Notes: a model not told the origin generated them from the letters alone. 64,000 nucleotides of DNA from an uncultured Candidatus Saccharibacteria bacterium (GCA_964446735.1 CAYUQB010000002.1:18516-82515); one strand, 5' to 3'; counted from the stretch's first letter, positions 28,397 through 55,595 are shown. Program-made: numbers and translations.

Positions 28397-31300
28397 ATGT
28401 CCCTTCCACTCGATAAAAATTTCATCCCAAATAAGGTAGCGAGTGAATTGTCCGGATACAACTCGGACTACATCGCTCGACTTTGTCGTGAAGGAAAAAT
28501 CGAGGGTACGCAAATCGGTCGCGCATGGTTCGTAAATCGCGAGTCGCTAGAAAAGTTCATCAAGCAACAGGACACGCGCAAGAAGGAAATCGCGCGTGAA
28601 CTCTCTGCAGCTCGCGAACGCGAGTATTCTGCACGTCAGAATGCCGCAACTGAAGTAAAAGAAGTCAAGGAAGTACGCATTTCTACGGAGACTTCGATTC
28701 CAAAGGCCAAGCTCATCCCTTCGCAGATTGCACCGCTGCAGGCAGTAATTCACCGACCAGTACATGTGCGCGTAAAAGCTCGCAGTCCGCGCCTTTCGGA
28801 GGTTCACCCAACACTTCGCCCAGGATTCGCACTCGCTCTTACTGCACTCGTCTTGATGATCTCTGTATACGCTGCGGAGAGCGGACTCGTAAACAATTTT
28901 GCCTCACGTGTCATTACGTCAGCAATGCGCACTCACGCTGATGCGCCTGAACTTCCGTTGCGAAGCGCGTTTGCCATTCGTGGCATTGGTGAACATCTTG
29001 CACTTGGGACTTCACATCTCGTCACCGGCGCGCCAAAAGTGTATGAACGTGGCCTCATGGCACTGGTGCGGACACCTGCAGATTCTGCTGCAGCTGTTGC
29101 AACGGTCACGACAACTCCGGAACACGGAATCGGTGAGCGCGTTGCGCTTACGACCTACCGTGGCATCACTCGCTTTTTCAGTAACGCTACCGACCGGCTC
29201 GCAGTCTTCTTTGGATTTAAAAGTCCGAACATCGCGGTGCTTCCATTCGAGGCTGCCAGCGCACTTCATCCCTCGACCAATCTTCCCGCACCAACATCAT
29301 CTGGTGAGTATCGACCCACGACGCAAGGTATTACCACCGTCAACTACCTCACGGGAGTTTCGAGTGAGTACGTCGATAGCTACGTCTCCTCGTATGTAAC
29401 CAATGCACTTCGTGGTGTACGCGAGCAGATCGGACGTGATGTGCTGGATAGTAATGCGGTAAAGCGCAGCCGTAGTTCATCGAGCGGAAGCTCTTCAGGT
29501 GGAGCAGCAACCTCGGTGAATGGCGCGGTGGTAGCAACCTCGCTCACGCTCTCTGGTATCACTGGTTCTACGCAGTGTCTCCAAGTTGATACTTCAGGCG
29601 TCGTGTCCGGGACAGGATCCGCCTGTGGTGCAGGCGGCAGCGGAATCACTGGGCTTAAGGGTCAGTATTCAAGTACACAGACAGGCGCAACTCAGACCTT
29701 CGCGACGTCGAGTGATACCAACCTCACACTTACAATCACTTCTTCAGGAGACACGCATACTTTCACGCCGGGTTGGACTGGCGTACTTTCAGTAGCACGG
29801 GGCGGGCTCGGGCTCTCTGCCGTTACTGCCAACGGACTCCTTATCGGAAATTCTGCAGGCACTGGGTACACAAGTGTTGCAACCAGCTCGCTCGGCCTTT
29901 CAACTTCCGACATCAGCGAAGGCAGCAATCTCTACTACACGACTGCACGCTTTGCTGCATCGCTCGCTGGTACTACCACTGACGCACTTGCTGAAGGAGC
30001 GATCAATCGGTACTACACTGACGCACGCGCACGCGCAGCCTACAGTACGACTGCAACTGGTCTCTCATACAGCAGTGCCAGTGGCGTACTCTCGCTCTCG
30101 AGCGGCTACAACATTCCACTCACCGCATCGACCACGAACTGGAATTCTTTCTACGACACACCCTCGACGCGTATCACTGCTGGTACCAATCTTTCCTGGA
30201 GCGGCAACACACTCAACGGTCCGGCTGACTCAACCATTCGAGGACTATTCTCAGGCACCTACCCAGTTAGCTACGACAGTGGCACGGGAGCCTTCAGTCT
30301 TGCGTTTGGTACCACTACTTCAAACACCTGGGCAGGCACACAGACGTTCACCAACACTCCAGTTCTCGGTACGCTCACCGGACTCGTAGGATCAAACAAC
30401 GGTAGCCTCTATCAAATCGCCACCTCTTCCAACTTCGTTACATCGATCGCGCAAAGTTTCGGTTCTGCACAGACCGGTGCCGTCACACTCGCAACAAGTT
30501 CTGCCGCGACCTGGAATGGAGTGACCTTCACTAACTCGATCACTAACTCTGGCGGCACGTTCACCTTCACGCCGGCACTCTCTGGTACGCTCGCGGTCGC
30601 AGGTGGCGGCACCGCCACCACCACCTTCTACAACGGTGGCGTGGTCTTCTCTGACGGCACCAAACTCACCCAAGCAGCCGCCGCAAGCAACTTCTTCTGG
30701 GACAACACCAACAACCGTCTTGGTCTTGGCACCTCTTCTCCATGGGGTCAGCTCTCGATCAATCCGAATGGCATTAGTGGACCAGCGTTTGCAATTGGCT
30801 CTTCTACCGACACCCTCTTCTCCATTACCAGTGGCGGACACATAACAATCGGCACATCCACACCCGCATCAACCAACGGAATAACCCTCACGACAACAGC
30901 AGGTACCGCAGCCCCGATCCTGTACATGTATCGAAACGATAGTTCAGTAACCGCAAGCGAGTCCCTGGGTGCAATTTACTTCGACAGTAACGATGGCCCG
31001 GTGAGTACAAACGATGCTGCGGTAGCTATCCTGGCCCAAGCCGCAGAAGTGCATGGAAGCACCGCGAAAGGTGGACAACTCATTTTCCAGACTAAATCGA
31101 TTGGAACAGGTCCTAATAGTAGTTCCGACGAACGTTTCCGAATTACCGCAAGTAATACCAGCGGTTTCAGTACCTCATCTCCGTATGCGACGCTCTCAAT
31201 TCACACGAACAAGGATGTAACGAATAGAACCCTTTTTGCAATCGGCTCATCGACAGCTTCCGCGACCTCAACGCTCTTTAGTATTACGAACACCGGTTCG

Positions 31301-34300
31301 ACTACTCTCTTCCAACTCCCAAGTTCGGTACTGACTACGAATGAGAATGGCACCATTGTCGGTACCACATCGGTTGGCATTACTTACGGCGGTACCGGCA
31401 TCACTAGCTACACTTCCGGTGATCTTCTCTACGCTAACAGCAGCGGCATCCTCGCAAAGCTTGGAATTGGTTCGGCCGGTCAGGTGCTCAAGGTCACCGG
31501 TGGACTACCTGTATGGGGTGCCGATCTTACGACTGGCGGCGGCGGCGGTGCCGGCGCGTGGGCAACAACGAGTGATAGTCTTGCTGTCTACCCGACCGAC
31601 ACTTCAGACGTCATCATTGTCGGCAACAGCGCGACTAGTACGCTCACCAGTATTTTCGAAGTGCATGGCAAGTCGTACTTCTCAAATTTCCTCGGTATCG
31701 GCACGACGAACCCTTCGACACAACTCTCGGTACAAGGTGATGCGCTCTTCTCGGGTAATCTCTCACTTGCAAACCTTACTGCAACTGGAACGATCTCAAC
31801 CACAAATCTCACGGTAGGTACCCTTAACGGACCACTTCATGCGAACAATGGCGTCGTTTCAGCAACCACGTCTATTGGTGTGCTTTACGGCGGTACAGGT
31901 CTTACGACCGCTCCATCGTACGGACAGCTTTTACTCGGTAACAGCAGTAGTGGCTATACACTCACCGCAACTTCTTCGTTGGGACTCCAGTCGGTTCTCC
32001 AGGGTACCCAAGGTCAGGTCGCATATTTCTCAGACACAAACACTGCGGTCGGTACCTCAAGCATTTTCATCGGAACAAATACGAATGTCGGTATCGGTTC
32101 CTCGTCGCCAAGCGCGAGACTAAGTATTCTCGGTGCAGATGCTGCATCTTCGGGAGCGACTGCACCCCATGCGCTGTATGTACGGGGTGGTACTGGTGGG
32201 TCGACTAGCGGGTTCGGTGGCCCCATAACACTTGTTGGAGGCGCGGCAGGGGTGGCGACCTCAAATGGAGGTACGGTGACCATTGTCTCTGGCTCGTCAT
32301 TTGCAGGACTGCCTGGGGCAGAAATCGAACTGACCGGTTCAGCGAATAGCGCTGGTGGTGGTCTCACGTTCACCGGTGGGAATGGCAGTATCCTTGGAGG
32401 CGGGTTCACATTCACTAGCGGAGATGGTCAGTCGGGCGGTTCATACTACTTCACCTCAGGCGATGGCTCCTTGAATGGTGGTGACTTCAACTTCACAAGT
32501 GGTGCCGCGACTTCTTCCGGAAGCGGTGGACAATTCACTTTCACAGGCGGTGTCGCAAGTTCTACAACTGCAAACGCAACGGGCGGTGGCTTTACCGTCA
32601 CCGGTGGAGCTGCAAGTTCTACGATCTCGACTGTCCACGGTGGTTCCATTCAACTGACCGGCGGCTCGGGTGGTACCGGTGCACTTACGGTAGGAAGTGG
32701 AGGGAATATTGTCCTAAACGGAGGTGCTGCGGGTGTCGCAGGCGGTTCGGTAGGGAACGTGCTTCTCGCTGGGCTACGTGGCAAGGTGGGTATCGGTTCA
32801 AGTAGTCCCTATGCGCTCCTCTCACTGCATGCTTCCAGCACCGCGACCACACCAATGTTGTTTGCAATTAGTTCTTCGACCTCTACGTTTGCGACGTCAT
32901 CGCTGTTCTCCATCAACAATGTCGGTTCTACCACCCTCTTCCAGCTTCCAAGTTCGGTGCTTACCACAAATCAGAATGGAACTATCGTCGGCACCACTTC
33001 AATTGGTGTTACGTACGGTGGTACTGGTCTCACGAGTGGCCCATCGTACGGCCAGTTGCTTGTAGGTAACGCGTCCGCTGGGTATTCACTCACTGCAACG
33101 AGTTCACTCGGACTGGTTACATCAGTGAACGCATCCGGTGGCACTACCGGTCTTTCATTCTCGGGCGGCCCCATCACCTCGTCAGGCACACTTACTCTTT
33201 CTGGGACACTTGGACTTGCGAACGGCGGCACCGCCACCACCACCTTCTACTCCGGTGGCGTGGTCTTCTCCGACGGTGCTCGCCTCACCCAAGCTTCCTC
33301 CACCAGTGACTTCTTCTGGGACTCAACTAACAAGCGTCTTGGTCTTGGCACGTCTACTCCATGGGGCCAACTCTCCATTAACCCCAATGGTATTAGTGGA
33401 CCAGCGTTTGCAATTGGCAGTACCACTAACACGAGCTTTGTGGTGACGAATGGGGGATATGTGGGGATTGGAAGCGCGGTGCCGACCAACGCGCTTACGG
33501 TTGTTGCGAGCTCAACTTCTGTGACGAGCACTTTCCCGTTTGACGACACACAGCTTGAAATTGCAGCAACCTCTTCAAGTTCCGGTTCACTCAATATTGG
33601 TTTGAATTCGAGACAATCACGCTACTACATAGTTGGTAACTCGGGCAATCTGACGTCCAACGATATGTATATTGGTGTTGACGGATCAAGTGATGGATTC
33701 GGAAAGGTTCACATCATCACCGGGTTTGCAGGTGGATCGGTACCACGTATTACTGCCACACGTGATGGTCAGGTGGGTATTGGTACGACTTCTCCCTACG
33801 CAAAATTCGCTGTTCACGCCGCTAATGCTGAAACCAATCGTGTCCTCTTTGCTATTGGTTCCTCAACCGCTTCCGCAACTACCACTCTCTTCTCTGTAAA
33901 CAACATCGGCTCCACAACGCTCTTCCAGCTTCCGAGTTCGGTACTGACTACGAATGAGAATGGCACGATTGTCGGTACCACATCGGTGGGCGTAACGTAC
34001 GGCGGTACGGGACTTTCAACAGCACCCGCCTATGGCCAGCTTCTGGTGGGTAACTCTAGCGGTGGGTATACCCTTACGGCAACCAGCTCACTTGGGCTTG
34101 GTACTGGTAATGGCACCGTCACTTCTGTAGATGCTTCAGGTGGCACTACCGGTCTTTCATTCTCGGGCGGCCCCATCACCTCGTCAGGCACACTTACTCT
34201 TTCTGGGACACTTGGACTTGCGAACGGCGGCACCGCCACCACCACCTTCTACTCCGGTGGCGTGGTCTTCTCCGACGGTGCTCGCCTCACGCAGGCATCT

Positions 34301-37300
34301 TCCACCGGTGACTTCTTCTGGGACTCAACCAACAAACGCCTGGGACTCGGTACCTCAACACCGTTTGCGAAACTTTCTGTCAATCAAAACACGAGCGGTC
34401 CAAGCACGATACCGGCCTTTGTCGTGGGTGCATCTGATTCAACGAAGTTTATCGTCACAGCAAGTGGAAATGTGGGTGTTGGAACTTCTTCCGCTGCGTA
34501 TACACTCGATGTAGGCGGGTTCGCAAACGTCGATAAATTCTCGGGCTACAAACAGGATACGTTCACCATCCTCACTGCATCGTCCACATCACTTTCAACA
34601 TTGGTCGGTATTAATGCAGGCGCGTCACTCACTCAAGGCGCTCGCTATGCAACCGTCCTTGGCTACGGCGCACTCCAGAACACAACGTCCGGCACCTATA
34701 ACACCGCAGTTGGCTATCAAACATTAAATGCGAACTCGACCGGTGCGCAGAACACTGCACTTGGTGCATTCGCACTCACAAATAATTTCACCGGCGCAGA
34801 CAATGTCGCACTTGGCTATGGTGCGAGCTACTTCAATGCATATGCGACGCGCACCGTTGCTATCGGTAGCGAAGCAGGTGAGGGCGTCGGCAACTATGCA
34901 AACCAGGGTGGAGTACTCGTAGGCTACAAGTCTGGCTTCAACCTGACCGATGGTTCCAACTACAATACACTTCTTGGCTACCAATCAGGCTTTGGTATCA
35001 CCACGGGTGCCAACAACATCATCATCGGTGCAGACTCTGATGGGAGTGGTGGAAACTCAAATCTCACCACCGGATCGGGAAATATTCAGATCGGGTACAA
35101 TATCTCGCTCCCAAGCGCGACCGCAAGCAATCAACTCAACATCGGAAATCTTATCTACGGTACCGGAGTGAGTGGCACGGCTTTTGTACCATCGACAGGT
35201 CGTATCGGTATCGCTTCTACGTCACCGTTCGCAAAGCTCTCAGTACATGCGAACAATGGAGATACTAACCCCGCGCTGTTTGCGATAGGTTCTTCAACAG
35301 CAAGTGCGACAACCACTCATTTCCTGGTCACGCGTACCGGCGAAGTCGGCATCGGTACTACTTCTCCGAGCGCGCAGCTTGCACTTTCCGGTGTATCAGG
35401 AACAACCGCAGCAGCACCGGATTTCCTAGGCCTGTTTGGAGGCACAGGAGGCGCGCCAGTCACCGGTGACGCTGGCGCTGGTTCGAGTGGCAGGATTGGT
35501 GCAGGTGCAGGTGGAGCGACAGCTAACGGGAATGGTGGGGCAGGCGGCTCGCTCACCTTCGCTGCCGGTACGGGCGGTGCGTCGTCTCAAACAACCGGTA
35601 TCTCCGGCGCAGGCGGTTCACTTAGCCTTTCGGCCGGTAACGGCGGTGATGGCAGTGAACTGGTGTCGACTCCTGGTAACGGCGGTGCGATTACCATTAC
35701 TGCTGGTTCTGCTGGAGGAAATGGAGCAGCATCTGGCGGTAGTGTGACTATCAATCCGGGTGCAAAGGGTACTACGGGGAGTGATGGAAACGTTCTCATC
35801 GCAACACTTCGTGGGAAAACCGGTATTGGTACTACTTCACCGTACGCAAAGCTCTCCATCCACTCAAATAATGGCGATACCAATAGGACGCTTTTTGCTA
35901 TCGGTTCTTCAACGGCTTCTGCCACGACCACACTCTTCAGTATTACGAACACTGGTGACGCAACACTTCTAGGTACTTCTACTGCTGCAGGTGGTTCCTT
36001 CACGAGACTGACAGTTGGTTCTGATTACTTCACTGATCTTACGGGCACTGGCCTTGCTCTTTCTGGAAGCGCACTTACCCTCGACACAGGAAATGCCAAC
36101 TCTTGGACCGGTACTCAAACGTTTAACACGGTGACCATCAATACTGGATATGTCTTCACCGTTGGAACACTGAATGGTCCTCTGCACGCCAACAACGGAG
36201 TTGTGGCGGCGACAACCTCTATCGGCGTTACGTACGGTGGTACAGGCCTCACGACTGCACCGAGTTACGGTCAAATTCTTGTGGGTAACGCGTCCTCCGG
36301 CTATACCCTCACCGCAACCTCATCACTTGGCCTCCCGACTGGTTCGGGTGCAGCAGGACGTGTCGCGTTCTGGGATGGTACGGGCAGTCTGTCCTCAAAT
36401 GCCAATTTCACTTTCTCCTCGACTAACAGTCAGTTCTCAATTCCAAATAATGGGTGGTATGCAATTGGTGGCAACCTCCTCGGATATGCTTCATCCACAA
36501 ATCAAGCGACGATCTTCGGTCTCGGTGCTGGCGGCAATAACGCAACCACAACTGGAGCCGGAAGTAATCTGACGGCAGTGGGATTCAATGCGCTTAATGC
36601 CATGACGACTGGAGCGAACAACACGGCGGTCGGTTCACTTGCGCTTAGAAGTGCCACAACTGGCGGTGCGAATACGGCGGTCGGTGCGAGTGCGCTCAGT
36701 GCACTTACTACGGGTGGCTTCAACACCGCAGTTGGCTACCTCGCGGGCACCAGCGTAACAACCGGAGCCGGCAACTCGATACTTGGTCACGATGCCGCAG
36801 CCTCACTCACTGTTGGTTGGAATAACACACTCATTGGTCAGTATGCTGGGTACACCATCACGACCGGGTCAGGTAACACCGTGCTTGGCGGTGTCGAAGA
36901 TACAGGAATAAGTAACCTTACGACAGGTGACAACAACATTGCCATTGGACTCAATATTCTGTTCGCGGACGGTACGGCGGATAACCAACTTAACATTGGT
37001 AACTTCATCTTCGGCACCATACCCGCCACAACGACAAACAGTTCACTTCAACTGCCGAAAACCGGCAAACTCGGTATCGCCACCTCTTCTCCGTACGCCA
37101 AACTTTCCATTCACGCGAATAACGGATCAACTGATACCACCCTCTTTGCGATCGGTTCTTCGACCGCAAGTGCTACCTCGACACTCTTTTCCGTTAGTAA
37201 TTCCGGCCAGCTCTCTTCGAATCTCTCGGGAACAACAACACTCTTGCGGGTCGCAGGTCGGGAATTCATCAAGGCGGATACCGCATCACTCAACCTCGCA

Positions 37301-40300
37301 CTCGGCTTTGATCCGCTTCGAGCGCTTACGACCGGAAGCGGGAACATAGCTATCGGTGAGAATGCTGGGTATGGAATTACCACCGGCACGTATAACACCA
37401 GCATCGGATACGGAACACAGAATCAAAACGGTCATTATAATGTGGCGCTCGGATACCAGACCGGCGGAGCTGGCAATAGAGCCGTGGCAGTCGGGTATAA
37501 CGCCTATTCGGATGGACAAGGTGGTATATCAATAGGTGCTGGTGCGAACGCGTTTGGAAGTTCAACTATTGCTGTCGGTTACGGGGCATACGCCAACAAC
37601 ACAGACGGTATTGCACTCGGTAGTGACGTGTTTTCATACGGAACCGCTGCGATCGTGATCGGTGCCTCTGCTTCAAGTGACTCGGGCGCCTCGAGCACTA
37701 TCGCTATCGGTTACAACGCATATGGGGGTGGCACAATTTCTAACACAGTCATTGGCGACACCGCTGGTTTCAACATAGCAGGAAGACGCAATCTTCTTAT
37801 CGGACCGACTGCGTTCGATCCCAATGGTGCTTCAGACGGTGGATTGAGTATTGGCAATCTCATTTTCGGTACACTTCCTGCCACGACCACGGTTGCCTCA
37901 CTACCGCTCACGGGCGCAATCGGTGTTGCTACCACTTCTCCGTATGCAACCCTTTCAGTTCACGCAAACAGCGGCTCAGTAAACACTACGCTCTTCGCGA
38001 TCGGTTCTTCGACCGCGAGTGCCACCTCGACTCTCTTCTCCATTAACAATATCGGCTCCACCACACTCTTCCGTCTCCCAAGTTCAGTCCTTACAACGAA
38101 TGAGAACGGCACAATCGTTGGCACCACATCTGTTGGTGTCACCTATGGCGGTACCGGCCTGGCGACGGCTCCTTCGTACGGTCAACTTCTCCTTGGAAAC
38201 GCATCAAGTGGGTATACACTCACGGCAACGTCCTCTCTCGGTATCGCTATCAGTGATACTACTGGTACGCTCAGTCTTGCTCGTGGCGGCACCGCCACCA
38301 CCACCTTCTACAACGGTGGCGTGGTCTTCTCTGACGGCACCAAACTCACCCAAGCAGCCGCCGCAAGCAACTTCTTCTGGGACAACACGAACAACCGTCT
38401 AGGGCTGGGTACCTCAAGTCCATGGGGCCAGCTCTCCATTAACCCCAATGGCATTAGTGGACCGGCGTTTGCCATCGGGAGTACCACGAGCACAAGTTTT
38501 GTGATTACTAACGCAGGATATGTGGGCATCGGGACGGCAACTCCACAAACCAGCCTCGATATTGATGGAGGTAATGTCCGTATAACGAATCTCTCGGGAA
38601 GTGTACAAAACCTGCTTTCACTCAATAACACGTCAGCGGGAACTGCGGCTGGAAACGCAATTGTATTTAACGGGCCCTCGAGTGTTCAGTATGGAAAAGT
38701 TGAGGTGGCCGCAGATAGTGCAACCAGTCAAACCTATCTTGCGCTCACGGTCCGTGGTGCGAGCGCTGCGTATGAAGCACTTCGTGCGGTGGGTTCGAGC
38801 GGGAGTATTGGTATCGGTACCACCACTCCGAAGTGGAAACTCACTGTTTCCACTTCGACTGCACCGCAACTCACCTTGACTGATGGCTCTGCCACTAATG
38901 CGCCCTTTAACTTCCGTGCCATTAACAACCTTTTGTACTTCTCGACCTCTTCGCCAACTACCTACGCTACCTCAACTCCGTTCTTAAGCTTCGACAGCTC
39001 TACTGCTTCGACCAGTATTCTGAGACTTGATGTGACGGGCACTGGAACCTCTACCTTTGCCAACGGTCTCAATATCGCCAATGGTTGCTATGCCGTGAAC
39101 GGTGTTTGCTTGGTCGGTACGTTCACCAACACGCTCGCTTCAGGCGGCACCGCCACCACCACCTTCTACAACGGTGGCGTGGTCTTCTCTGACGGCACCA
39201 AACTCACCCAAGCAGCCGCCGCAAGCAACTTCTTCTGGGACAACACGAACAACCGTCTCGGACTTGGAACATCGACACCATTTGGTCAGCTCTCCATCGA
39301 TTCGAACGGAATTACTGGTCCTGCGTTTGTTATTGGTTCATCAACCGCCACTCATCTGTTAGTTGAGAATAGTGGAAGAGTGGGTGTTGGTACTACCTCG
39401 CCTGCATCCGCGTATGGATTTAATGTCGGCACAAACTCGTATTTTGGAGCCACTACAACATTCGCTGGAGGTGCTGCTATCGGTGCATTTACCTCGGGGG
39501 GTAAGACAGGTACCTGGATTAATCTTCCAACGACTGGTCCGTCTGGTATTGGTACTGGCGGAGCAGGAAGTAACCCGTTTGTCGCATATGCTGCGTCAGC
39601 CACCGACTGGTTCAACGGTTCAATAATAGGTGACGCTGTGTATCGTAACGCAAACGGAACTCGTATTCTCATGGGCATTAGCAACAATAATGGTACTGCT
39701 CAACCACAGATTATTATTCAAGGTAACGCCTCATCTACCTGGCAAACCAGTTTCGGTACGACTTCACCATGGGGCATGGTCTCGATTGGTTCCCATGGGA
39801 TTGGAGACAAACCGGCGTTTGTCATTGGTTCGTCAACCGCGACTAATTTGATCGTCACCAATAGTGGACGAGTAGGTATTGGCACTAGCTCTCCTACCAG
39901 CATGCTCGCAGTTGGGGGAAACGTGACAATTAGTACTGCTGCAGCAAATAGCGGATTGCTGACCATCTACTCAGAGGACACAGGGTCCCTGTCCAATATG
40001 CAGGGTATCGTCGTTGCTGATCGTCAAAATGCCTACGGATCCTGGCAGACTCCTAGCGGGCTCGATGGAGTTCAGATCGGCGGCGGCGGCGAAGTAACCG
40101 CCTGGAATCAAGACTTCTTTATCAACTACTACTCCACCGGAGATGTGCGGCTTGCTCGCGGCGGCGGAGATGTGTTTGTAGGAAGCTCTCCACCGACAGC
40201 TCGGTTAAGCGTTAAGGGAAGCGCGGGTAGTACGACACCGGTGTTCCTCGTTTCTTCCTCCACGAACGCGAATCTATTTAATGTGCAATCGACTGGATTC

Positions 40301-43210
40301 GTGGGTGTCGGTTCTTCAACTCCGTGGGGTCAGTTCTCAGTGAATGCGTACGCAAGTACTGCACCAGCCTTCGTCGTCGGCAGCTCGAGTGCCACCAGTC
40401 TCGTGGTTTCTAACGGCGGCAATGTCGGTATCGGAACGAGTACGCCAGCACGCGCACTCCACGTCGCAAACTCAGGTGCCAGCTCACAATTCCTCCTCGA
40501 GGATACGGCGGCAGCTGCTGATCAACACATCGGTTCGATTGGGTTCTCACGCGGTGTCTTTAGCTTCAACACCCTTACCGATTCACTCGCAACGACCACT
40601 CGCCTCACCATCGACACCAGTGGCAATGTAGGTATCGCAACGTCTACACCGACCGCAAAGTTCGCGCTTACCGGAAGTGGCACCGGAACCGGTCGTCTCT
40701 TCGTACTTGCGGACTCGGCCAATACCGAACGACTCACCATTCTTGATAACGGAAAGGTAGGTATTGGTACAACCAGTCCAAACTGGCTCCTCTCGGTGTC
40801 AGGAACATCCGGCACTCGCTTCAAGACAACATCGGCTATCCAGAATGCGTTTGTCGTCGAGAATGCGGTTGGCACATCGACATTCCAAGTGGACACGCTT
40901 GATAACAGCGATTCCATCTTCTCGGTCGCGACCTCGTCGGGCAGTACGTACTTCTACGTTGGTGCGTCAGGACGCATTGGCGTAGGCACCACAACGCCGG
41001 GCGCTGCCCTCGATGTCTATAATGGTGCGCTGTGCGTTGATGACAGCTCGCCGACTTGTCAGGACGCTGCGCGTACCGCCGGTACAATCTATGCAGTTTC
41101 AACCTCCATTACCGGCATCGACCTTGCCGAGCGATACCCGACCAAGGATGCAACGCTTGCAGCAGCCGAGATCGTAGCGTTCGATCCTGCAAATCCGGTG
41201 TTTGTGAAGCGTGCTGCTTCAGGCAGCAGTTCGTTCCTCGGTGTCGTATCCACCCAGCCGGGTATTCTCCTCGGCGGCTATAACGACTCCTTATATAAGG
41301 ACGAGGTGAAAGTACCGGTGGCCCTTGCTGGTCGTGTCCCTGTTGCCGTTACGATGGAGGGAGGTGCTATCGACGTTGGTGACTACATCACCATCTCCAG
41401 TACGCCGGGTGTGGGAAAGAAGGCGACTGCGTCAGGCCAGACCATCGGCGTCGCGCTTGAGCCGGCAACCGCTGATGGCACTATCCAGGTATACATCAAA
41501 CCTGAGTATGTATTTGTGCCAAGCCAGCTCGCGATTGATGCTGATACAGGAAATGTCGGTATCGGAGTTGAGAACCCAACTCGTAAGCTTGAAGTGGCAG
41601 GAGATGCATTCTTCTCGGGCTTCCTTACTTCAGATCGATTTGTTGCATCCGGCTCGGGCACTAGCACGCTCCCACGAATTACCACCAATGCCATCGATCT
41701 TGCCGGCCAGTACCTCACTTCGGTTACCGGTACCGGACTCGAACTTTCGGGCGGCATACTCTCGATCGCAACGTCTTCGCTCACCAGTAATCTCTTCGCG
41801 CAGGGCGGCAATTCCTTTGGAACCACGACGGTGCTTGGCACTCGCGATACGCAGGATCTTGCCTTCATGACTGCAAGTTCGACTCGGCTCACTATTACCG
41901 CAGCCGGTAAGGTGGGTATTGGCACCGCGGCTCCCGCGCATGCGCTTGAAGTGGTTGGTGATGTTGCTGCCATTAGCTTCGTAAACACCTCAACTCGTAC
42001 TGCGAAGGAAGATATTACCTATCTCACGCAGGAAGATACGAAGGGTATTCTCGACACGCTTCGAGGCCTCAAGGTTGCCGAGTACCACTACAAGATTGAA
42101 AATCAATCAAATCCGCTCCGGCTTGGACTCATCGCAGAAGAGGCGCCTACTGAAGTACTCTCGCTTGATGGTAAGGGAGTTGATATCTATAAACTCGCAA
42201 CCTTCACCCTTGCCGGTGTCCAGTCGCTTGCAGGCAAAGTCGACACGCTCGAAGCAAAGGTTGCGGATATCGACGCACGACTCGCGCAGCTCGGGGGAGT
42301 AACACTTGCAACTACCAGTACCAGCACGAAAATCGCATCAAGCGGTGTCGGCCTGGGTGACCTTCCAGACGCACTACGCAGCTTCGGAGCATTCATTGGT
42401 AATGGCATCGCACAATTCCAAACACTCGTTGCACGACAATTTGTCGCAAGCAAGGATGCGGACGGCACGTCTTCTGCAGGTGAGGGAACCGTTGCATCAA
42501 CCACCAACTCGACCACCATTGAGAACAAACTGGTACGAGCATCAAGCAAGATCTTCATCACGTTCACGAGCCCAGTGGAGGGTGGGTGGTATCTGGCTGA
42601 TAAGAAGGAGGGAAGCTTCCGGGTGGTGCTGAAGAGCATGCCGGCTGAAGATGTCACGTTTGACTACTTCTTCATCCAGACCGAAGGGCAGCTCGCGGCG
42701 TCCGGCGCAGCGTCTGGCACCACAGACGGCAGCGATACGGAGCCGCCGGTGATTACGCTCAATGGTGAGACCTCTACGTACGTGCCAGTGGGGGAGACAT
42801 ACGTCGATCCTGGCGTGTCAGCGGTGGATGCAGTTGATGGCCCAGTTAGGTACAACCGACAGATAAATGGACAAACGATGGATATCAATGCTCCGCTTGA
42901 TACCTCGCACGAAGCGACCTATACGCTTACCTACGTTGCCTTCGATGCAAAGGGTAACTACGCAAGTGCCACTCGCACCGTCATTGTGGCAGCGCCCGGT
43001 GGTGGGGGAGCAGTACTTCCCGGTGCAACTCCCGAGCCGACACCTGCCCCAGAACCTGCACCGATACCTGAACCTACACCTGAACCTACACCTGAACCTG
43101 CACCAGAGCCAGCTCCGGAGCCAACACCAACTCCCGAGCCGACGCCTGCCCCAGAACCTGCACCGGAACCGGCTCCTGAACCAGCGCCATCCCCAGCTCT
43201 AGAAGGATGA
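28397..43210 (+). CDS. giant (4,937-aa) membrane-anchored fibre/adhesin-like protein with four parts: N-terminal HTH_17-like module and TM helix; Gly/Thr/Ser-rich modular repeat fibre; C-terminal peptidase-S74 intramolecular chaperone domain; DUF5011/Ig-like domain and (PEPT)n tail
   Basis: Single uninterrupted ORF of 14,814 nt. TM helix PGFALALTALVLMISVYAA (about aa 140-160). At least seven copies of the module LFAIGSSTASATSTLFSI-N-GSTTLFQLPSSVLTTNENGTIVGTTSVGVTYGGTGL..YGQLLVGN..GYTLTATSSLGL. NTAxG/AIG repeats (about 34.6-35.2 kb and 36.5-37.9 kb) resemble YadA-head/phage tail-fibre repeats. aa about 4532-4650 STRTAKEDITYL..LRGLKVAEYHYK..RLGLIAEEAP..LEAKVADIDARLAQL match the Peptidase_S74 (endosialidase chaperone) profile including the Ser-x4-Lys dyad. 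aa about 4780-4865 PVITLNGETSTYVPVGETYVDPGVSAVDAVDG...TYTLTYVAFDAKGNYASATRTVIV match DUF5011. C-terminus PEPTPAPEPAPIPEPTPEPTPEP... Confidence 0.85.
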   Translation: MSLPLDKNFIPNKVASELSGYNSDYIARLCREGKIEGTQIGRAWFVNRESLEKFIKQQDTRKKEIARELSAAREREYSARQNAATEVKEVKEVRISTETSIPKAKLIPSQIAPLQAVIHRPVHVRVKARSPRLSEVHPTLRPGFALALTALVLMISVYAAESGLVNNFASRVITSAMRTHADAPELPLRSAFAIRGIGEHLALGTSHLVTGAPKVYERGLMALVRTPADSAAAVATVTTTPEHGIGERVALTTYRGITRFFSNATDRLAVFFGFKSPNIAVLPFEAASALHPSTNLPAPTSSGEYRPTTQGITTVNYLTGVSSEYVDSYVSSYVTNALRGVREQIGRDVLDSNAVKRSRSSSSGSSSGGAATSVNGAVVATSLTLSGITGSTQCLQVDTSGVVSGTGSACGAGGSGITGLKGQYSSTQTGATQTFATSSDTNLTLTITSSGDTHTFTPGWTGVLSVARGGLGLSAVTANGLLIGNSAGTGYTSVATSSLGLSTSDISEGSNLYYTTARFAASLAGTTTDALAEGAINRYYTDARARAAYSTTATGLSYSSASGVLSLSSGYNIPLTASTTNWNSFYDTPSTRITAGTNLSWSGNTLNGPADSTIRGLFSGTYPVSYDSGTGAFSLAFGTTTSNTWAGTQTFTNTPVLGTLTGLVGSNNGSLYQIATSSNFVTSIAQSFGSAQTGAVTLATSSAATWNGVTFTNSITNSGGTFTFTPALSGTLAVAGGGTATTTFYNGGVVFSDGTKLTQAAAASNFFWDNTNNRLGLGTSSPWGQLSINPNGISGPAFAIGSSTDTLFSITSGGHITIGTSTPASTNGITLTTTAGTAAPILYMYRNDSSVTASESLGAIYFDSNDGPVSTNDAAVAILAQAAEVHGSTAKGGQLIFQTKSIGTGPNSSSDERFRITASNTSGFSTSSPYATLSIHTNKDVTNRTLFAIGSSTASATSTLFSITNTGSTTLFQLPSSVLTTNENGTIVGTTSVGITYGGTGITSYTSGDLLYANSSGILAKLGIGSAGQVLKVTGGLPVWGADLTTGGGGGAGAWATTSDSLAVYPTDTSDVIIVGNSATSTLTSIFEVHGKSYFSNFLGIGTTNPSTQLSVQGDALFSGNLSLANLTATGTISTTNLTVGTLNGPLHANNGVVSATTSIGVLYGGTGLTTAPSYGQLLLGNSSSGYTLTATSSLGLQSVLQGTQGQVAYFSDTNTAVGTSSIFIGTNTNVGIGSSSPSARLSILGADAASSGATAPHALYVRGGTGGSTSGFGGPITLVGGAAGVATSNGGTVTIVSGSSFAGLPGAEIELTGSANSAGGGLTFTGGNGSILGGGFTFTSGDGQSGGSYYFTSGDGSLNGGDFNFTSGAATSSGSGGQFTFTGGVASSTTANATGGGFTVTGGAASSTISTVHGGSIQLTGGSGGTGALTVGSGGNIVLNGGAAGVAGGSVGNVLLAGLRGKVGIGSSSPYALLSLHASSTATTPMLFAISSSTSTFATSSLFSINNVGSTTLFQLPSSVLTTNQNGTIVGTTSIGVTYGGTGLTSGPSYGQLLVGNASAGYSLTATSSLGLVTSVNASGGTTGLSFSGGPITSSGTLTLSGTLGLANGGTATTTFYSGGVVFSDGARLTQASSTSDFFWDSTNKRLGLGTSTPWGQLSINPNGISGPAFAIGSTTNTSFVVTNGGYVGIGSAVPTNALTVVASSTSVTSTFPFDDTQLEIAATSSSSGSLNIGLNSRQSRYYIVGNSGNLTSNDMYIGVDGSSDGFGKVHIITGFAGGSVPRITATRDGQVGIGTTSPYAKFAVHAANAETNRVLFAIGSSTASATTTLFSVNNIGSTTLFQLPSSVLTTNENGTIVGTTSVGVTYGGTGLSTAPAYGQLLVGNSSGGYTLTATSSLGLGTGNGTVTSVDASGGTTGLSFSGGPITSSGTLTLSGTLGLANGGTATTTFYSGGVVFSDGARLTQASSTGDFFWDSTNKRLGLGTSTPFAKLSVNQNTSGPSTIPAFVVGASDSTKFIVTASGNVGVGTSSAAYTLDVGGFANVDKFSGYKQDTFTILTASSTSLSTLVGINAGASLTQGARYATVLGYGALQNTTSGTYNTAVGYQTLNANSTGAQNTALGAFALTNNFTGADNVALGYGASYFNAYATRTVAIGSEAGEGVGNYANQGGVLVGYKSGFNLTDGSNYNTLLGYQSGFGITTGANNIIIGADSDGSGGNSNLTTGSGNIQIGYNISLPSATASNQLNIGNLIYGTGVSGTAFVPSTGRIGIASTSPFAKLSVHANNGDTNPALFAIGSSTASATTTHFLVTRTGEVGIGTTSPSAQLALSGVSGTTAAAPDFLGLFGGTGGAPVTGDAGAGSSGRIGAGAGGATANGNGGAGGSLTFAAGTGGASSQTTGISGAGGSLSLSAGNGGDGSELVSTPGNGGAITITAGSAGGNGAASGGSVTINPGAKGTTGSDGNVLIATLRGKTGIGTTSPYAKLSIHSNNGDTNRTLFAIGSSTASATTTLFSITNTGDATLLGTSTAAGGSFTRLTVGSDYFTDLTGTGLALSGSALTLDTGNANSWTGTQTFNTVTINTGYVFTVGTLNGPLHANNGVVAATTSIGVTYGGTGLTTAPSYGQILVGNASSGYTLTATSSLGLPTGSGAAGRVAFWDGTGSLSSNANFTFSSTNSQFSIPNNGWYAIGGNLLGYASSTNQATIFGLGAGGNNATTTGAGSNLTAVGFNALNAMTTGANNTAVGSLALRSATTGGANTAVGASALSALTTGGFNTAVGYLAGTSVTTGAGNSILGHDAAASLTVGWNNTLIGQYAGYTITTGSGNTVLGGVEDTGISNLTTGDNNIAIGLNILFADGTADNQLNIGNFIFGTIPATTTNSSLQLPKTGKLGIATSSPYAKLSIHANNGSTDTTLFAIGSSTASATSTLFSVSNSGQLSSNLSGTTTLLRVAGREFIKADTASLNLALGFDPLRALTTGSGNIAIGENAGYGITTGTYNTSIGYGTQNQNGHYNVALGYQTGGAGNRAVAVGYNAYSDGQGGISIGAGANAFGSSTIAVGYGAYANNTDGIALGSDVFSYGTAAIVIGASASSDSGASSTIAIGYNAYGGGTISNTVIGDTAGFNIAGRRNLLIGPTAFDPNGASDGGLSIGNLIFGTLPATTTVASLPLTGAIGVATTSPYATLSVHANSGSVNTTLFAIGSSTASATSTLFSINNIGSTTLFRLPSSVLTTNENGTIVGTTSVGVTYGGTGLATAPSYGQLLLGNASSGYTLTATSSLGIAISDTTGTLSLARGGTATTTFYNGGVVFSDGTKLTQAAAASNFFWDNTNNRLGLGTSSPWGQLSINPNGISGPAFAIGSTTSTSFVITNAGYVGIGTATPQTSLDIDGGNVRITNLSGSVQNLLSLNNTSAGTAAGNAIVFNGPSSVQYGKVEVAADSATSQTYLALTVRGASAAYEALRAVGSSGSIGIGTTTPKWKLTVSTSTAPQLTLTDGSATNAPFNFRAINNLLYFSTSSPTTYATSTPFLSFDSSTASTSILRLDVTGTGTSTFANGLNIANGCYAVNGVCLVGTFTNTLASGGTATTTFYNGGVVFSDGTKLTQAAAASNFFWDNTNNRLGLGTSTPFGQLSIDSNGITGPAFVIGSSTATHLLVENSGRVGVGTTSPASAYGFNVGTNSYFGATTTFAGGAAIGAFTSGGKTGTWINLPTTGPSGIGTGGAGSNPFVAYAASATDWFNGSIIGDAVYRNANGTRILMGISNNNGTAQPQIIIQGNASSTWQTSFGTTSPWGMVSIGSHGIGDKPAFVIGSSTATNLIVTNSGRVGIGTSSPTSMLAVGGNVTISTAAANSGLLTIYSEDTGSLSNMQGIVVADRQNAYGSWQTPSGLDGVQIGGGGEVTAWNQDFFINYYSTGDVRLARGGGDVFVGSSPPTARLSVKGSAGSTTPVFLVSSSTNANLFNVQSTGFVGVGSSTPWGQFSVNAYASTAPAFVVGSSSATSLVVSNGGNVGIGTSTPARALHVANSGASSQFLLEDTAAAADQHIGSIGFSRGVFSFNTLTDSLATTTRLTIDTSGNVGIATSTPTAKFALTGSGTGTGRLFVLADSANTERLTILDNGKVGIGTTSPNWLLSVSGTSGTRFKTTSAIQNAFVVENAVGTSTFQVDTLDNSDSIFSVATSSGSTYFYVGASGRIGVGTTTPGAALDVYNGALCVDDSSPTCQDAARTAGTIYAVSTSITGIDLAERYPTKDATLAAAEIVAFDPANPVFVKRAASGSSSFLGVVSTQPGILLGGYNDSLYKDEVKVPVALAGRVPVAVTMEGGAIDVGDYITISSTPGVGKKATASGQTIGVALEPATADGTIQVYIKPEYVFVPSQLAIDADTGNVGIGVENPTRKLEVAGDAFFSGFLTSDRFVASGSGTSTLPRITTNAIDLAGQYLTSVTGTGLELSGGILSIATSSLTSNLFAQGGNSFGTTTVLGTRDTQDLAFMTASSTRLTITAAGKVGIGTAAPAHALEVVGDVAAISFVNTSTRTAKEDITYLTQEDTKGILDTLRGLKVAEYHYKIENQSNPLRLGLIAEEAPTEVLSLDGKGVDIYKLATFTLAGVQSLAGKVDTLEAKVADIDARLAQLGGVTLATTSTSTKIASSGVGLGDLPDALRSFGAFIGNGIAQFQTLVARQFVASKDADGTSSAGEGTVASTTNSTTIENKLVRASSKIFITFTSPVEGGWYLADKKEGSFRVVLKSMPAEDVTFDYFFIQTEGQLAASGAASGTTDGSDTEPPVITLNGETSTYVPVGETYVDPGVSAVDAVDGPVRYNRQINGQTMDINAPLDTSHEATYTLTYVAFDAKGNYASATRTVIVAAPGGGGAVLPGATPEPTPAPEPAPIPEPTPEPTPEPAPEPAPEPTPTPEPTPAPEPAPEPAPEPAPSPALEG
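30605..30720 (+). repeat. 116-bp near-perfect direct repeat family, copy 1 of 3 (inside giant ORF)
   Basis: GGCGGCACCGCCACCACCACCTTCTACAACGGTGGCGTGGTCTTCTCTGACGGCACCAAACTCACCCAAGCAGCCGCCGCAAGCAACTTCTTCTGGGACAACAC(C/G)AACAACCGTCT. One mismatch versus copies at 38285..38400 and 39143..39258. Confidence 0.85.
33137..33288 (+). repeat. 152-bp perfect direct repeat, copy 1 (inside giant ORF)
   Basis: Identical to 34139..34290 by direct comparison; encodes GGTTGLSFSGGPITSSGTLTLSGTLGLANGGTATTTFYSGGVVFSDGARL. Confidence 0.9.
34139..34290 (+). repeat. 152-bp perfect direct repeat, copy 2 (inside giant ORF)
   Basis: Identical to 33137..33288; spacing 1,002 bp (334 codons), one protein repeat module. 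Confidence 0.9.
38285..38400 (+). repeat. 116-bp direct repeat family, copy 2 of 3
   Basis: Identical to 39143..39258 over this span; one mismatch versus 30605..30720. Confidence 0.85.
39143..39258 (+). repeat. 116-bp direct repeat family, copy 3 of 3
   Basis: See copies 1 and 2. Confidence 0.85.
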
Positions 43211-43257
43211 TTTACGCTATACTTATTTATGACGTTCGTCTCACCAACCACCTCACC

Positions 43258-44550
43258 ATGAAAACAGTTGCGCTCTTCCTTGCTCTCCTCCTCATGCCTA
43301 TTCAGGCATTTGCGATGAGTCAACCTCTCTTTTCTGCCATAGGTCAGATCTCAGGCGTCTCGGGGTCAACCCGTTACTACGGATGCGGAAATTCTGGAGT
43401 TACAAACTCCTCAATTGCACTAGTCGCACCTCCCCTCTCGGTTGCGGGAGTACTAGATAACCTTCAAGTGTCGACAAGTGCCGCTCCCGGGGCGGGGACT
43501 ACCATTACCTACACCGTCGAAAAGAATGACGTTGACACAACACAGACCTGCCAAATTTCTGACACAGCGACTACCTGTTCGGATGCCGCTCATCCAATAA
43601 CATTCGCAGCCGGCGATACTTGTGGTATTCGCACTCAAGCCACAACCGGTGCTCCAGCAGCAATAGAATCAAATGTTTCCAACTCATTCGTTCCCACCGC
43701 CGACGGTGAAGCGGTTATCACAGGTTCAGGTTCAAGTGCACTAAATAGTGCAACGGGCTATTATGCTGTGTATGGAGATACTGCAACGACCTCCATAACT
43801 CGCGCCTCTACAACCTTTCCTACCAACGGAACAGTCGATAAATTTTACGTTGCACTAAGCGGTACTCCCGGGACGGGCACCTCATATGACTTCACAGTGT
43901 TTAAGAACGGTGTAACAACTGGCATCACCTGCCAGGTTGCTAACACCGCAACAACGTGCAATGACCCAACGAACACTGCATCCTTCTCCGCAGGTGACTC
44001 TATCACCATCCAGGTGGTTCCTACTGGCACACCGACTGCGCGGTCGCCCAAATGGGGTCTTCGCTTCACGCCGACGATAAATGGCGAGAGCGTTTTGTTT
44101 GTTCGTGAACTCAACAATTCAAACGTCACTCGCTACCATGCCATACAAGGCTCTGGGGAGCGCAGCACTAACGAAGTCAACGTGCAGGTGGTAGCACCGC
44201 TCGCGTTCCAGCTGAAGAAACTTTATTTCAACATCGTACACGGTCAACCGACCGCCGGCACCAGCCGTATTCTTACCGTGAGAAAGAACGGTGCCGGTAC
44301 GTCGTTAGGCGGGACACTCACCGATACGGCTGCGTGGGTGACTGATCTTAGCGATACCGTTGACTATGCGGCCGGTGATCTCGTATCTACAGAAATGACC
44401 AACACTGGCTCACCACCCACGGCTGTTGTTGAATTCTGGTCAACGGTTGCGTTCGTAGATCCTGGAACTGCGGCCACGACCCCTACTTCGAAGTTCCGTA
44501 TCTTCGGCGGTAAGTGGAATATTTTTGGGGGCAGCGTATTCCTCCGATAA
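43258..44550 (+). CDS. secreted protein with N-terminal signal peptide and three about 100-aa Thr/Cys-containing repeat domains; unknown function
   Basis: Start placed at MKTVALFLALLLMPIQAFA (signal peptide); the ORF as tracked begins at 43207. Three repeats with pattern ..T(F/V)xKNG..TCQ(I/V)..TATTC(S/N)D....F(A/S)AGD(T/S). Immediately downstream of the giant gene. Confidence 0.5.
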   Translation: MKTVALFLALLLMPIQAFAMSQPLFSAIGQISGVSGSTRYYGCGNSGVTNSSIALVAPPLSVAGVLDNLQVSTSAAPGAGTTITYTVEKNDVDTTQTCQISDTATTCSDAAHPITFAAGDTCGIRTQATTGAPAAIESNVSNSFVPTADGEAVITGSGSSALNSATGYYAVYGDTATTSITRASTTFPTNGTVDKFYVALSGTPGTGTSYDFTVFKNGVTTGITCQVANTATTCNDPTNTASFSAGDSITIQVVPTGTPTARSPKWGLRFTPTINGESVLFVRELNNSNVTRYHAIQGSGERSTNEVNVQVVAPLAFQLKKLYFNIVHGQPTAGTSRILTVRKNGAGTSLGGTLTDTAAWVTDLSDTVDYAAGDLVSTEMTNTGSPPTAVVEFWSTVAFVDPGTAATTPTSKFRIFGGKWNIFGGSVFLR

Positions 44551-46235: not shown

Positions 46236-47423
46236 ATGACAACCACATTACAAAGAAACATGACACAAAACGCAACAGAAGAAAATTTCTTCACAGCGAT
46301 AGGAAACACTAAGCCCTTCTTCAAGGCAGCTTTTGAAGGAGAGCCAGGCACCGGCAAGAGCTGGAGTGCTGCATTGGTCGCTATCGGACTTCATAAGAAA
46401 ATCGGAAGTAAAAAGCCGGTTGTTCTTATCGATACCGAGAAAGCTGCGAAGTTTTTGGTCCCACTCTTTCAAGAGCATGGGATTGAAGCGATGGTGAGAG
46501 AAACGCATTCTCTCGCTGACTTGGTAACAGCTATGAGGCTCTGTACAGAAGGATATTCAGACATCATGGTGATCGATAGCATCACTCATATCTGGATGGA
46601 TTTCCAAGAGGCTTATAAGCGAAAGCTGAATAGGCAAAATTTCCAAATCCAAGACTGGATGGCAATCAAGTCTGATTGGAACAGAAATTTCTCTATCCCA
46701 TTGGTTCAGTCGCCTCTACACATTATCGCCACAGGGCGTGTGTCAGATCGAATGGAGCAAGAAATAGATGAAGATGGTCGAAAAGAGTTCACTAAGACTG
46801 GAGTAAAGATGCAGGCAGAAAAAAATGCTGCATACGAATTCGATGTCTTGGTTCTTATGGAACGCCATGAACTCATTGAGCGTAAAAAGCGTGAAGTTTG
46901 GAGACAGGCAACTGTTCTTAAGGGTCGAGGCAATCTACTTGATGGAAAGGTGTTTAAAAACCCTACATATGAGGACTTTGCACCGGCAATTGAAGCAGTT
47001 ATTAAGGATCCTGCATCTGCACGATTGAATCCAACTGAGCGTGATGCAGGTGAATTGATCCGCACAGAAGAAGATAAGCGTAAATGGGTGCTTGAAAGAA
47101 AGCGATGGCTTGAGGAGATAGAGGGATATCTTGTCTCAATTTGGCCAAGTACTGGCGCACAGGAAAAGAAAAACAAGACTGATGCGCTTGAGTATGCCTT
47201 CCAGACCCGAAGCTGGTCTGCAATTGAAGCAATGCGACCTGACGTCCTCGAGGACGGCTACGCACGAATTCAGGAGTTTGTTCAAAAGAAGATCGCTGAA
47301 ACTAAAGGCGAACTTCCTCCGGAACTGACACCTGAGCAGAAGTTCGAGAAGGATCTTAGAGATTCAAAGACAGATGAAAAGCCAAAGCGTTCTAACACTA
47401 AGGCTGTCAAAAGTGGCAAGTAA
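46236..47423 (+). CDS. phage AAA_24 / Sak4-like RecA-fold ATPase
   Basis: Walker A FEGEPGTGKSWSA, Walker B DIMVIDSITHIW, and the AAA_24 arrangement. Charged coiled C-terminal extension. Confidence 0.55.
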   Translation: MTTTLQRNMTQNATEENFFTAIGNTKPFFKAAFEGEPGTGKSWSAALVAIGLHKKIGSKKPVVLIDTEKAAKFLVPLFQEHGIEAMVRETHSLADLVTAMRLCTEGYSDIMVIDSITHIWMDFQEAYKRKLNRQNFQIQDWMAIKSDWNRNFSIPLVQSPLHIIATGRVSDRMEQEIDEDGRKEFTKTGVKMQAEKNAAYEFDVLVLMERHELIERKKREVWRQATVLKGRGNLLDGKVFKNPTYEDFAPAIEAVIKDPASARLNPTERDAGELIRTEEDKRKWVLERKRWLEEIEGYLVSIWPSTGAQEKKNKTDALEYAFQTRSWSAIEAMRPDVLEDGYARIQEFVQKKIAETKGELPPELTPEQKFEKDLRDSKTDEKPKRSNTKAVKSGK

Positions 47424-47467
47424 GTAGGTTAGCCACTGACTCAGTCCTCATCGCAGTGGCGTGAGGA

Positions 47468-48025
47468 TTGAGATCAGGGGCCAACCACCCCAACAACCCT
47501 ATGGATCAACCAAAAACCGACTTCATACCAAATAGCACTCAAATTCCAAATCTGGTCCTCGATTTTATCGTTCCTCGAATTTCAGAAGCGGAATCAAGAT
47601 GTCTTTTGTACATATGTCGTCGGACTTTTGGTTTTCATAAAGAATCTGATCGCATTAGTTTCTCTCAATTTATCGAAGGGATAAAAGATCGTAGGGGTAA
47701 TGTGCTTGATTATGGGACTGGCCTTTCAAGGCAATCAGTCGCTGCTGGCTTAAAGAATCTTGCGGCGGCCGGACTGGTCTTGGTGAGCAAAAGTAAGGGT
47801 GGAAATCTCTACAAAATAAACCTGCATATGGATGTGGATAAGGTAGTCAACTTAGTAGACCAGTCAAGAAGGTTGACCAAAAGTGGTCTAAAAAATAGAC
47901 CGAAATCGGTCTACCAAGTAGACACACAAAATCTAGGAAAAAAAGAGAAATCTAGTATTAGGGATCCTGTGAATAACTTATCCACAGAACTCAGCGAACT
48001 CACTAAAAAAATGACCATCAAATAG
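47468..48025 (+). CDS. putative phage replication initiation / winged-helix DNA-binding protein
   Basis: SEAESRCLLYICRRTFGFHKESDRISFSQFIEGI resembles the replisome-organiser/DnaD-like N-terminal HTH domain. Follows the ATPase. Confidence 0.35.
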   Translation: MRSGANHPNNPMDQPKTDFIPNSTQIPNLVLDFIVPRISEAESRCLLYICRRTFGFHKESDRISFSQFIEGIKDRRGNVLDYGTGLSRQSVAAGLKNLAAAGLVLVSKSKGGNLYKINLHMDVDKVVNLVDQSRRLTKSGLKNRPKSVYQVDTQNLGKKEKSSIRDPVNNLSTELSELTKKMTIK

Positions 48026-48028
48026 CTC

Positions 48029-48457: not shown

Positions 48458-48475
48458 TAACATTTCAATAAAGCC

Positions 48476-48877: not shown

Positions 48878-48880
48878 TTT

Positions 48881-52341: not shown

Positions 52342-52347
52342 AAGAAA

Positions 52348-52375
52348 AGTAATGCACTCAATTTTGCATTTTTTG
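52348..52375 (+). repeat. phage intergenic motif AGTAATGCA-N8-TGCATTTTTT, copy 1 (before portal gene)
   Basis: AGTAATGCACTCAATTTTGCATTTTTTG; small stem AATGCA/TGCATT plus T-tract. Recurs at 55596 and 60476. Confidence 0.6.
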
Positions 52376-55591: not shown

Positions 55592-55595
55592 TGAT

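Follow-up and report, generated by a model that had tools for sequence, protein, structure and literature searches.

The 64,000-nucleotide window analysed here, a stretch of DNA from an uncultured Candidatus Saccharibacteria bacterium (GCA_964446735.1 CAYUQB010000002.1:18516-82515), contains a giant fibre gene whose single uninterrupted open reading frame (ORF) encodes, in order, a helix-turn-helix (HTH) module, a transmembrane (TM) segment, a shaft, an intramolecular chaperone domain (ICD) of the Peptidase_S74 family, head domains and a tail (Table 1). Because the neighbouring genes in the window are ordinary cellular genes (SecA, Obg, GatB, with GAPDH downstream) and the relatives of the giant protein come from metagenome-assembled genomes of Patescibacteria, the gene is a chromosomal gene of a candidate-phyla-radiation bacterium and not a phage gene. 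A preliminary description of this DNA had predicted that the ICD cuts itself at a Ser-x4-Lys dyad, setting free a domain-bearing C-terminal fragment; our analysis leans towards such a cut taking place and yielding a domain-bearing product.

Analysis of the ORF and its codons confirmed the dyad motif (STRTAK, from position 41990) at Ser4532, 406 residues before the stop, and alignment to the S74 hidden Markov model (HMM) bore out its placement, with position 1 of PF13884 falling on Ser4532. In a scan of the C-terminal 736 residues, PF13884 (Peptidase_S74) reached 23.7 bits, the gathering score being 22, and its positions 1-49 covered residues 4532-4583. The dyad stands in the context FVNT/STRTAKEDI at the N-terminal boundary of the domain, and the aromatic and G-h-IAQE motifs of the family are present as well, the domain including AEYHYK (Y4563/Y4565), RLGLIAEE and GKGVDIYKL. 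The ST-type S74 domain of relatives scored 28-33 bits in Pfam. A 24-sequence profile of residues 4518-4643 aligned to the entire chaperone of a T5-like L-shaped tail fibre (8hqz_d) at E=7.8e-4, the Ser and Lys of both being in register, and aligned weakly to the ICA domain of MYRF (7dc3), where AEYHYK was matched to MYRF LVHYRYK. Both AEYHYK and RLGLIAEE are invariant in the family alignment (A2), and RLGLIAEE aligns to MYRF GVIAQE. The 38-residue helix that ends the domain gave weak profile matches to designed trimeric coiled coils; a structure search gave no confirmation of the ICD fold. Taken together, these results indicate that residues 4532-4635 are a genuine intramolecular chaperone of the Peptidase_S74 type.

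The dyad is strictly conserved among relatives. Searching 1.84 billion cluster representatives with an ICD profile retrieved 5,701 proteins with E<=1e-3, of which 254 reached E<=1e-30, and local analysis of 171 strong members showed Ser in 171/171 and Lys in 171/171, with Thr at position 2 in 163, the family motif being ST(R/K)xxK. Although eight strings of the form S-x4-K-x2-[IVLM] occur in the giant protein, only that of Ser4532 lies at the start of the HMM, which together with the invariance of Ser and Lys shows that the motif is not a chance occurrence.

The predicted C-terminal product, Ser4532-Gly4937, has 406 residues, a mass of 42.1 kDa and an isoelectric point of 4.4, and the predicted N-terminal product has a mass of 449 kDa. 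An AlphaFold2 model of residues 4480-4880, built as a single chain from 51 aligned sequences, comprised the chaperone with its terminal helix, a poorly ordered linker, a beta-sandwich and an Ig-like domain. The preliminary description had given the size of the piece correctly and had rightly placed an Ig-like domain and a Pro-rich tail in it, and had missed the beta-sandwich, here called midA. No Pfam model matches midA and NCBIfam has no model for the module; its closest structural relatives are the C-terminal domains of phage tailspikes, and it resembles lectins. Sequence identity to phage tailspike or depolymerase C-terminal domains and to lectin-like heads is 11-14%, and midA lies downstream of the predicted cleavage site, whereas the tailspike domains are at the end of the mature spike. 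The Ig-like domain gave a Foldseek match to 2kpn (E=2.6e-5). In the tail, the DNA consists in part of 12-nucleotide tandem repeats (43037-43104 and 43145-43182), no sorting signal or TM segment was found, and the only matches were to low-complexity regions (PARP, a TonB spacer and an AcfD linker). Since two folded domains follow the chaperone, the C-terminal piece looks like a fibre head and not like a bare chaperone; the extension domains are well folded and adhesin-like.

Table 1. Features of the giant fibre gene and of the prophage-like block downstream, in window coordinates (aa, amino acids or residues of the giant protein; AF2, AlphaFold2; pLDDT, predicted local distance difference test score).
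Feature	Position	Strand	Basis or remark
Giant fibre gene, single uninterrupted ORF	28397..43210	+	4,937 aa
HTH_17/excisionase-like module, aa 15-58	28439..28570	+	Pfam PF12728, 27.7 bits, cut-off 27 (N-terminal fragment scan)
TM segment, aa ~142-162	28820..28882	+	Only 19-residue window with mean Kyte-Doolittle hydropathy >1.8
Fibre shaft, Gly/Thr/Ser/Ala-rich, ~4,370 aa	28883..41989	+	Composition, motif count
Phage_cement_2-like globular insert in shaft, aa 4305-4367	41309..41497	+	PF09956, 23.9 bits against cut-off 24; not established
Ser4532, predicted nucleophile; predicted scissile bond Thr4531/Ser4532	41990..41992 (tca)	+	Pfam HMM position 1
Lys4537, predicted general base of the dyad	42005..42007 (aag)	+	Aligned to Lys of the 8hqz_d chaperone
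Intramolecular chaperone (Peptidase_S74, ICD), aa 4532-4635	41990..42301	+	Pfam, profile alignments, AF2 pLDDT mostly 83-92
Long C-terminal helix of ICD, aa 4597-4634, presumed trimeric coiled coil	42185..42298	+	AF2 helix, model residues 118-155
Linker with conserved GIAQFxTLVxRQFVAS helix/hairpin, aa 4636-4689	42302..42463	+	Alignment; low to medium pLDDT
Unannotated beta-sandwich (midA), aa 4690-4770	42464..42706	+	AF2 pLDDT 92-98
Ig-like domain PF16403 (formerly DUF5011), aa 4786-4864	42752..42988	+	E=2e-14; AF2 pLDDT 93-97
Acidic Pro-rich (PEPT/PEPA)n tail, aa ~4872-4937, to C-terminus	43010..43207	+	
Prophage-like block: O-like replication initiator	47468-48025		
Prophage-like block: ParB-DNA methyltransferase fusion	48881-50110		
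Prophage-like block: small and large terminase subunits	50085-52341		
Prophage-like block: SU10-type portal	52396-54420		

The presence of a long extension after the ICD is a rule of the family. The distance from the Ser to the protein end had a median of 354 residues in the 171 proteins, of which 54 exceed 2,000 residues and 15 exceed 4,000, with a maximum of 7,920; where <=170 residues followed the Ser, in four members, the entry was always a short one (161-330 residues in total). A genomic re-measurement with one genome per species, which guards against truncated protein entries, gave 112 confirmed relatives, and the best 80 of these 112 loci were all from Patescibacteria. The Ser was present in all 72 genomic ICD copies, and in the 68 read to a true stop the Ser-to-stop distance was 236-726 residues (median 380). 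The ICD is thus never terminal at these loci, the 406 residues in the window being typical, and the family itself is, as far as sampled, restricted to Patescibacteria. Domain swapping makes the extension variable: a midA-type beta-sandwich with one to three Ig-like domains is present in about 50 of the 171, and the others have a different middle domain or nothing recognised by the three HMMs used. Within the subfamily, mean identity to the window was highest for the ICD (55%), followed by the beta-sandwich (48%) and the Ig-like domain (38%).

Some observations weigh against a cut that removes this piece. The PF13884 match is barely above threshold and is gone at E<=0.01 when the whole 4,937-residue protein is scanned, so that support for the S74 assignment comes from scanning the fragment, from the relatives and from the profile searches. 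The second position of the motif is Thr where the canonical residue is Asp, and Arg stands at position 3, not 4; Asp at position 2 is not universal, since the 8hqz_d chaperone carries Gly there. Finally, a head with lectin-like and Ig-like domains looks like a part that would be retained on the fibre, an argument against simple shedding. The borderline Pfam score might point to a chance Ser-x4-Lys in a degenerate domain, and the N-terminal HTH module and TM segment superficially recall a membrane-bound transcription factor whose DNA-binding module would be released in the manner of MYRF; we consider this pair of explanations very improbable. Chance is excluded by the family conservation and the full-length ICD alignments. 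Proteins of the MYRF type have their DNA-binding and ICA domains together on one side of the TM segment; in the giant protein the TM helix lies between the HTH module and the ICD, so a cut at residue 4532 cannot free the former, and release of this kind was rejected.

Another explanation, which we regard as unlikely, is that cleavage is absent or very slow and that the ICD serves only for trimerisation and folding; a permanent adhesive tip would then be formed by the beta-sandwich, the Ig-like domain and the tail, equivalent to the non-S74 tips of the mosaic adhesive trimer (MAT) fibres of Bdellovibrio. The resemblance of the beta-sandwich to terminal domains of phage tailspikes and to lectins would fit such a tip, as would the fact that a lectin-like head and S74 are alternative endings in phage fibres, where the one can replace the other (PMC12143355), the beta-sandwich tips in which non-S74 (NS74) MATs end (PMC10769870), the swapping of domains in the extension, as in adhesin tips, and the non-canonical residue at motif position 2. 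A dyad without a use would be expected to decay, but neither Ser nor Lys varies in any of the 171 relatives, and the Y-x-Y and GLIAEE motifs are invariant too.

Relatives in which the fibre is encoded by split genes bear on the same question. Many relatives of about 600 residues start with Met and an intein C-half (...EGTHNFVGNDIFAHN/TY...), and an intein C-half, in a split-intein arrangement, was found at 7 of the 72 genomic ICD copies. At one such locus (L001, 8-8868) a canonical ICD and then an intein N-half (CVVGDTKL...TTANHPFL, before the stop) close the shaft ORF, and three genes are inserted between the shaft and head halves. Some of these head genes (P0023, P0026 and P0036) lack the Ser-Lys half of the ICD. 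For P0036, the one of them whose partner was read, the partner shaft gene (L082, 3-5525) ends in a canonical SDERMKQNV...AIQELDGKLKEL followed by an intein N-half, and the spliced product would keep a dyad-bearing ICD directly upstream of the extension; that a dyad-less head would obtain a canonical dyad from its partner gene, directly upstream of the splice junction, argues against a permanent tip. For P0026 (L084, 4111-5631), the stretch read holds the head gene and stops short of the shaft gene. This arrangement looks like a split-intein 'fractured gene' that joins shaft to head, and in every case examined at least one intact dyad stands between the two, which is the strongest sequence-level argument that separation of shaft and head is a selected function. 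The split fibre genes of several Patescibacteria (L001, L082 and L084) are orthologous and are likewise followed by GAPDH, and the three to four genes between their halves comprise a PemK or NYN gene, a conserved protein of about 430-446 residues and a protein of about 155-176 residues. No intein was found in the window itself, the best tblastn match having E=0.11.

Tandem ICDs are common in the family. Of 124 members with enough upstream sequence, 52 (42%) carry a second, canonical ICD (SD/SS..K and G-h-IAQE) located 119-183 residues, typically about 135, upstream of the ST-type domain; this count comes from a strict test, a looser regular expression (73/171) having been dropped because it also matched the fibre repeat SSPYAKLSI. 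Pfam recognised two S74 stretches in P0018, P0041 and P0056. Carriers of tandem ICDs include P0018, P0041, P0053 and P0056, with about one fibre repeat between the two ICDs. In the giant protein, a search for a second ICD or second dyad found none (one hmmsearch domain and one G-h-IAEE motif). The preliminary description had offered two outcomes, an internal chaperone with additional processing or the shedding of a sizeable fragment. The chaperone is indeed internal, and no second site for further processing was found in this single-ICD protein, although 42% of relatives have a second ICD. As to the other outcome, the cutting-off of a domain-bearing fragment is favoured because the dyad is invariant and the extension always lies downstream of a dyad.

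The fate of the head raises a further possibility, namely that the cut is made and the head is kept non-covalently through the intertwined trimer and the coiled coil, the nick providing flexibility, stability or a force-sensitive breakaway point instead of immediate shedding. Such retention would reconcile an invariant dyad with an adhesin-like head, and in the relatives with tandem ICDs an entire second processed module would otherwise be discarded. We nevertheless think it quite unlikely: the fibre and the chaperone of processed Bd3182 run as separate bands on sodium dodecyl sulphate-polyacrylamide gel electrophoresis (PMC10769870), the ICA domain of MYRF has almost no contact with its stalk (PMC8326128) and the N-terminal fragment of MYRF is reported to leave the endoplasmic reticulum (ER) membrane.

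The region upstream of the predicted cut has the features of a fibre shaft. Gly, Thr, Ser and Ala make up 54% of its residues, and the motif GxVGIGTxxPxxxLxV occurs in 25 copies, the last at residue 4507. This last capping-loop motif ends 25 residues ahead of Ser4532, a gap that fits the expectation of a beta-helix followed by an ICD. The shaft aligns directly to the crystal structures 8ojn and 8ond of Bdellovibrio MAT fibres, the motif aligning to Bd2133 and to the Bdellovibrio 'cell wall surface anchor' protein 8ojn. By eye, the motif resembles the capping-loop motif of MAT fibres and MYRF (motif per PMC10769870), whose consensus is V-G-G/N-pi-x-x-P-x-x-x-L (PMC10769870), with the Pro of the shaft one position later. 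Scaling from Bd2133, in which ~370 residues span ~142-150 A (PMC10769870), the shaft might very roughly be 0.15-0.2 um long. Within the shaft DNA (30497-39351) there are six families of diverged direct repeats of 122-260 nucleotides with 60-88% identity and a spacing of ~0.6-4.1 kb. The gene appears to have grown by internal duplication; since none of the shaft DNA repeats are identical, collapse during assembly is unlikely. The putative globular insert in the shaft begins around DLAERYP, and its match to XM1_gp53_minor_capsid is weaker than that to Phage_cement_2.

At the N-terminus, the hydropathy scan suggests that the TM segment would serve as a membrane anchor, the remainder of the chain being extracellular. 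TIGR01764 matches the HTH module weakly. Most full-length relatives start with the same module, as one or two HTHs followed by a TM segment, and in a few a signal peptide takes its place. It is odd to find a fold of the DNA-binding type at the presumed cytoplasmic end of giant surface fibres. Upstream, a 268-residue ORF (26852-27658) also starts with an HTH_17-like module, 43% identical over 46 residues to that of the giant protein. Directly after this ORF lies a hairpin (27659-27689) with a perfect stem of 12-13 bp and T-runs on both strands, which looks like a bidirectional terminator, and about 700 bp without an ORF of at least 100 residues separate the hairpin from the giant gene.

Downstream, the ATG of an ORF at 43207-44550 overlaps the stop codon of the giant gene (ATGA). 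A likelier start is at 43258 (MKTVALFLALLLMPIQAFA, signal-peptide-like), giving a protein of about 430 residues with three internal repeats by eye; the ORF had no Pfam or NCBIfam match and was absent from the protein collection searched. A prophage-like block occupies 46236-64000 (Table 1), and no tRNA genes were found anywhere in the 64-kb window.

Comparison with known systems showed how this arrangement differs from each of them. Phage fibres carry the S74 domain at their C-terminal end, and the mature fibre lacks it (PMC12143355). The domain described here is like the phage ICDs of the K1F endosialidase and T5 pb1 (L-shaped tail fibre) in having Ser-x4-Lys at its start and the Y-x-Y and G-h-IAxE motifs; it follows what is presumably a trimeric beta-helical fibre, and the helix at its end would correspond to their coiled coil. 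Unlike phage ICDs, which end at or near the C-terminus, it is followed by 302 residues (two folded domains and the tail), with further residues in every relative checked, and the family motif is ST(R/K)xxK in place of SDxxxK. In Bdellovibrio, 13 MATs end in S74 and 8 in other tips, and self-cleavage of an S74 domain at S782 has been demonstrated experimentally for Bd3182 (922 residues) (PMC10769870). The giant protein resembles this S74 subgroup as a bacterial, cell-borne and presumably trimeric fibre with a similar repeat motif. In contrast, MATs have ~900-1,150 residues where a length is given and start with a signal peptide and a conserved, ~130-residue domain that is rich in beta structure (PMC10769870), neither of which the giant protein has; it has 4,937 residues, starts with HTH and TM and carries S74 and then tip-like domains in series, where MATs never have both (PMC10769870).

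MYRF is cut between P586 and S587 with the dyad S587/K592, Y615/Y617 being at the reaction centre, and the corresponding Ser of endoNF is S911 (PMC8326128). Like the giant protein, MYRF has an internal S74/ICA domain, with the same dyad spacing and an aromatic Y-x-Y, and, as is predicted for the giant protein, its cleavage separates two large products (PMC8326128); a large C-terminal product behind an internal S74 domain therefore has a characterised precedent. The premise of the preliminary description, that characterised S74 proteins release only a chaperone of about 150 residues, is true of Bdellovibrio MATs and of the fibres and spikes of phages (PMC10769870, PMC12143355) and is incomplete because the internal ICA domain of MYRF separates two large functional products. 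The C-terminal product of MYRF is reported to remain in the ER membrane, and its N-terminal part, the transcription factor, to be released; the anchor is thus in MYRF's C-terminal product, unlike the N-terminal anchor here. A further difference is that the ICD of the giant protein is probably extracellular, with no TM segment after it. What sets this family apart from known systems is the strict serial combination of a dyad-bearing ICD and then head-like domains on giant HTH-TM-anchored fibres. Literature searches on this family, on S74 in Patescibacteria and on split inteins in surface proteins of Patescibacteria brought up no account of any of them.

We propose that the giant protein is most likely a membrane-anchored trimeric surface fibre built from an HTH module in the cytoplasm, a single TM helix, a shaft and a C-terminal head. 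The N-terminal TM helix would anchor the chain, the rest lying outside the cell, and three chains would associate through the ICD and its coiled coil, by analogy with endosialidase, T5 pb1, Bd3182 and MYRF. The ICD trimer would nucleate folding of the upstream beta-helical shaft, as in phage ICDs and MYRF (PMC8326128, PMC10769870), and after folding Ser4532, with Lys4537 as base, would cut the bond between Thr4531 and Ser4532. The products would be an anchored 449-kDa shaft, as a trimer, and a trimer of acidic 42-kDa chains, each consisting of the chaperone, a beta-sandwich like a tailspike tip, the Ig-like domain and a stiff acidic Pro-rich tail. The ICD would thus act as a cleavable joint and not as a disposable end-piece, in this protein and across the Patescibacteria family. 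A bolder extension of this proposal, which we put forward as speculative and rather improbable, is that the ICD and extension form a self-detaching, interchangeable head, such that after folding or on host contact a trimeric lectin/Ig particle would be deposited on the host or released towards it; heads would be swapped as cassettes across Patescibacteria, in some lineages through split-intein trans-splicing onto the shaft.

Patescibacteria are described as comprising a large share of bacterial diversity, with all cultivated members being episymbionts and host recognition largely unexplained. Every member of the family checked has a dyad-bearing domain placed after the shaft and ahead of a variable, adhesin-like head. 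If this domain does cut itself, the 'disposable chaperone' of phages would have become a joint from which two functional products arise, outside the eukaryotic MYRF, and S4532 would offer a simple handle on fibre maturation; if there is no cut, something else must account for a dyad so strictly conserved. Should the head prove to be self-detaching, these fibres would represent a means, so far undescribed, by which episymbiotic bacteria assemble and diversify their host-contact structures.

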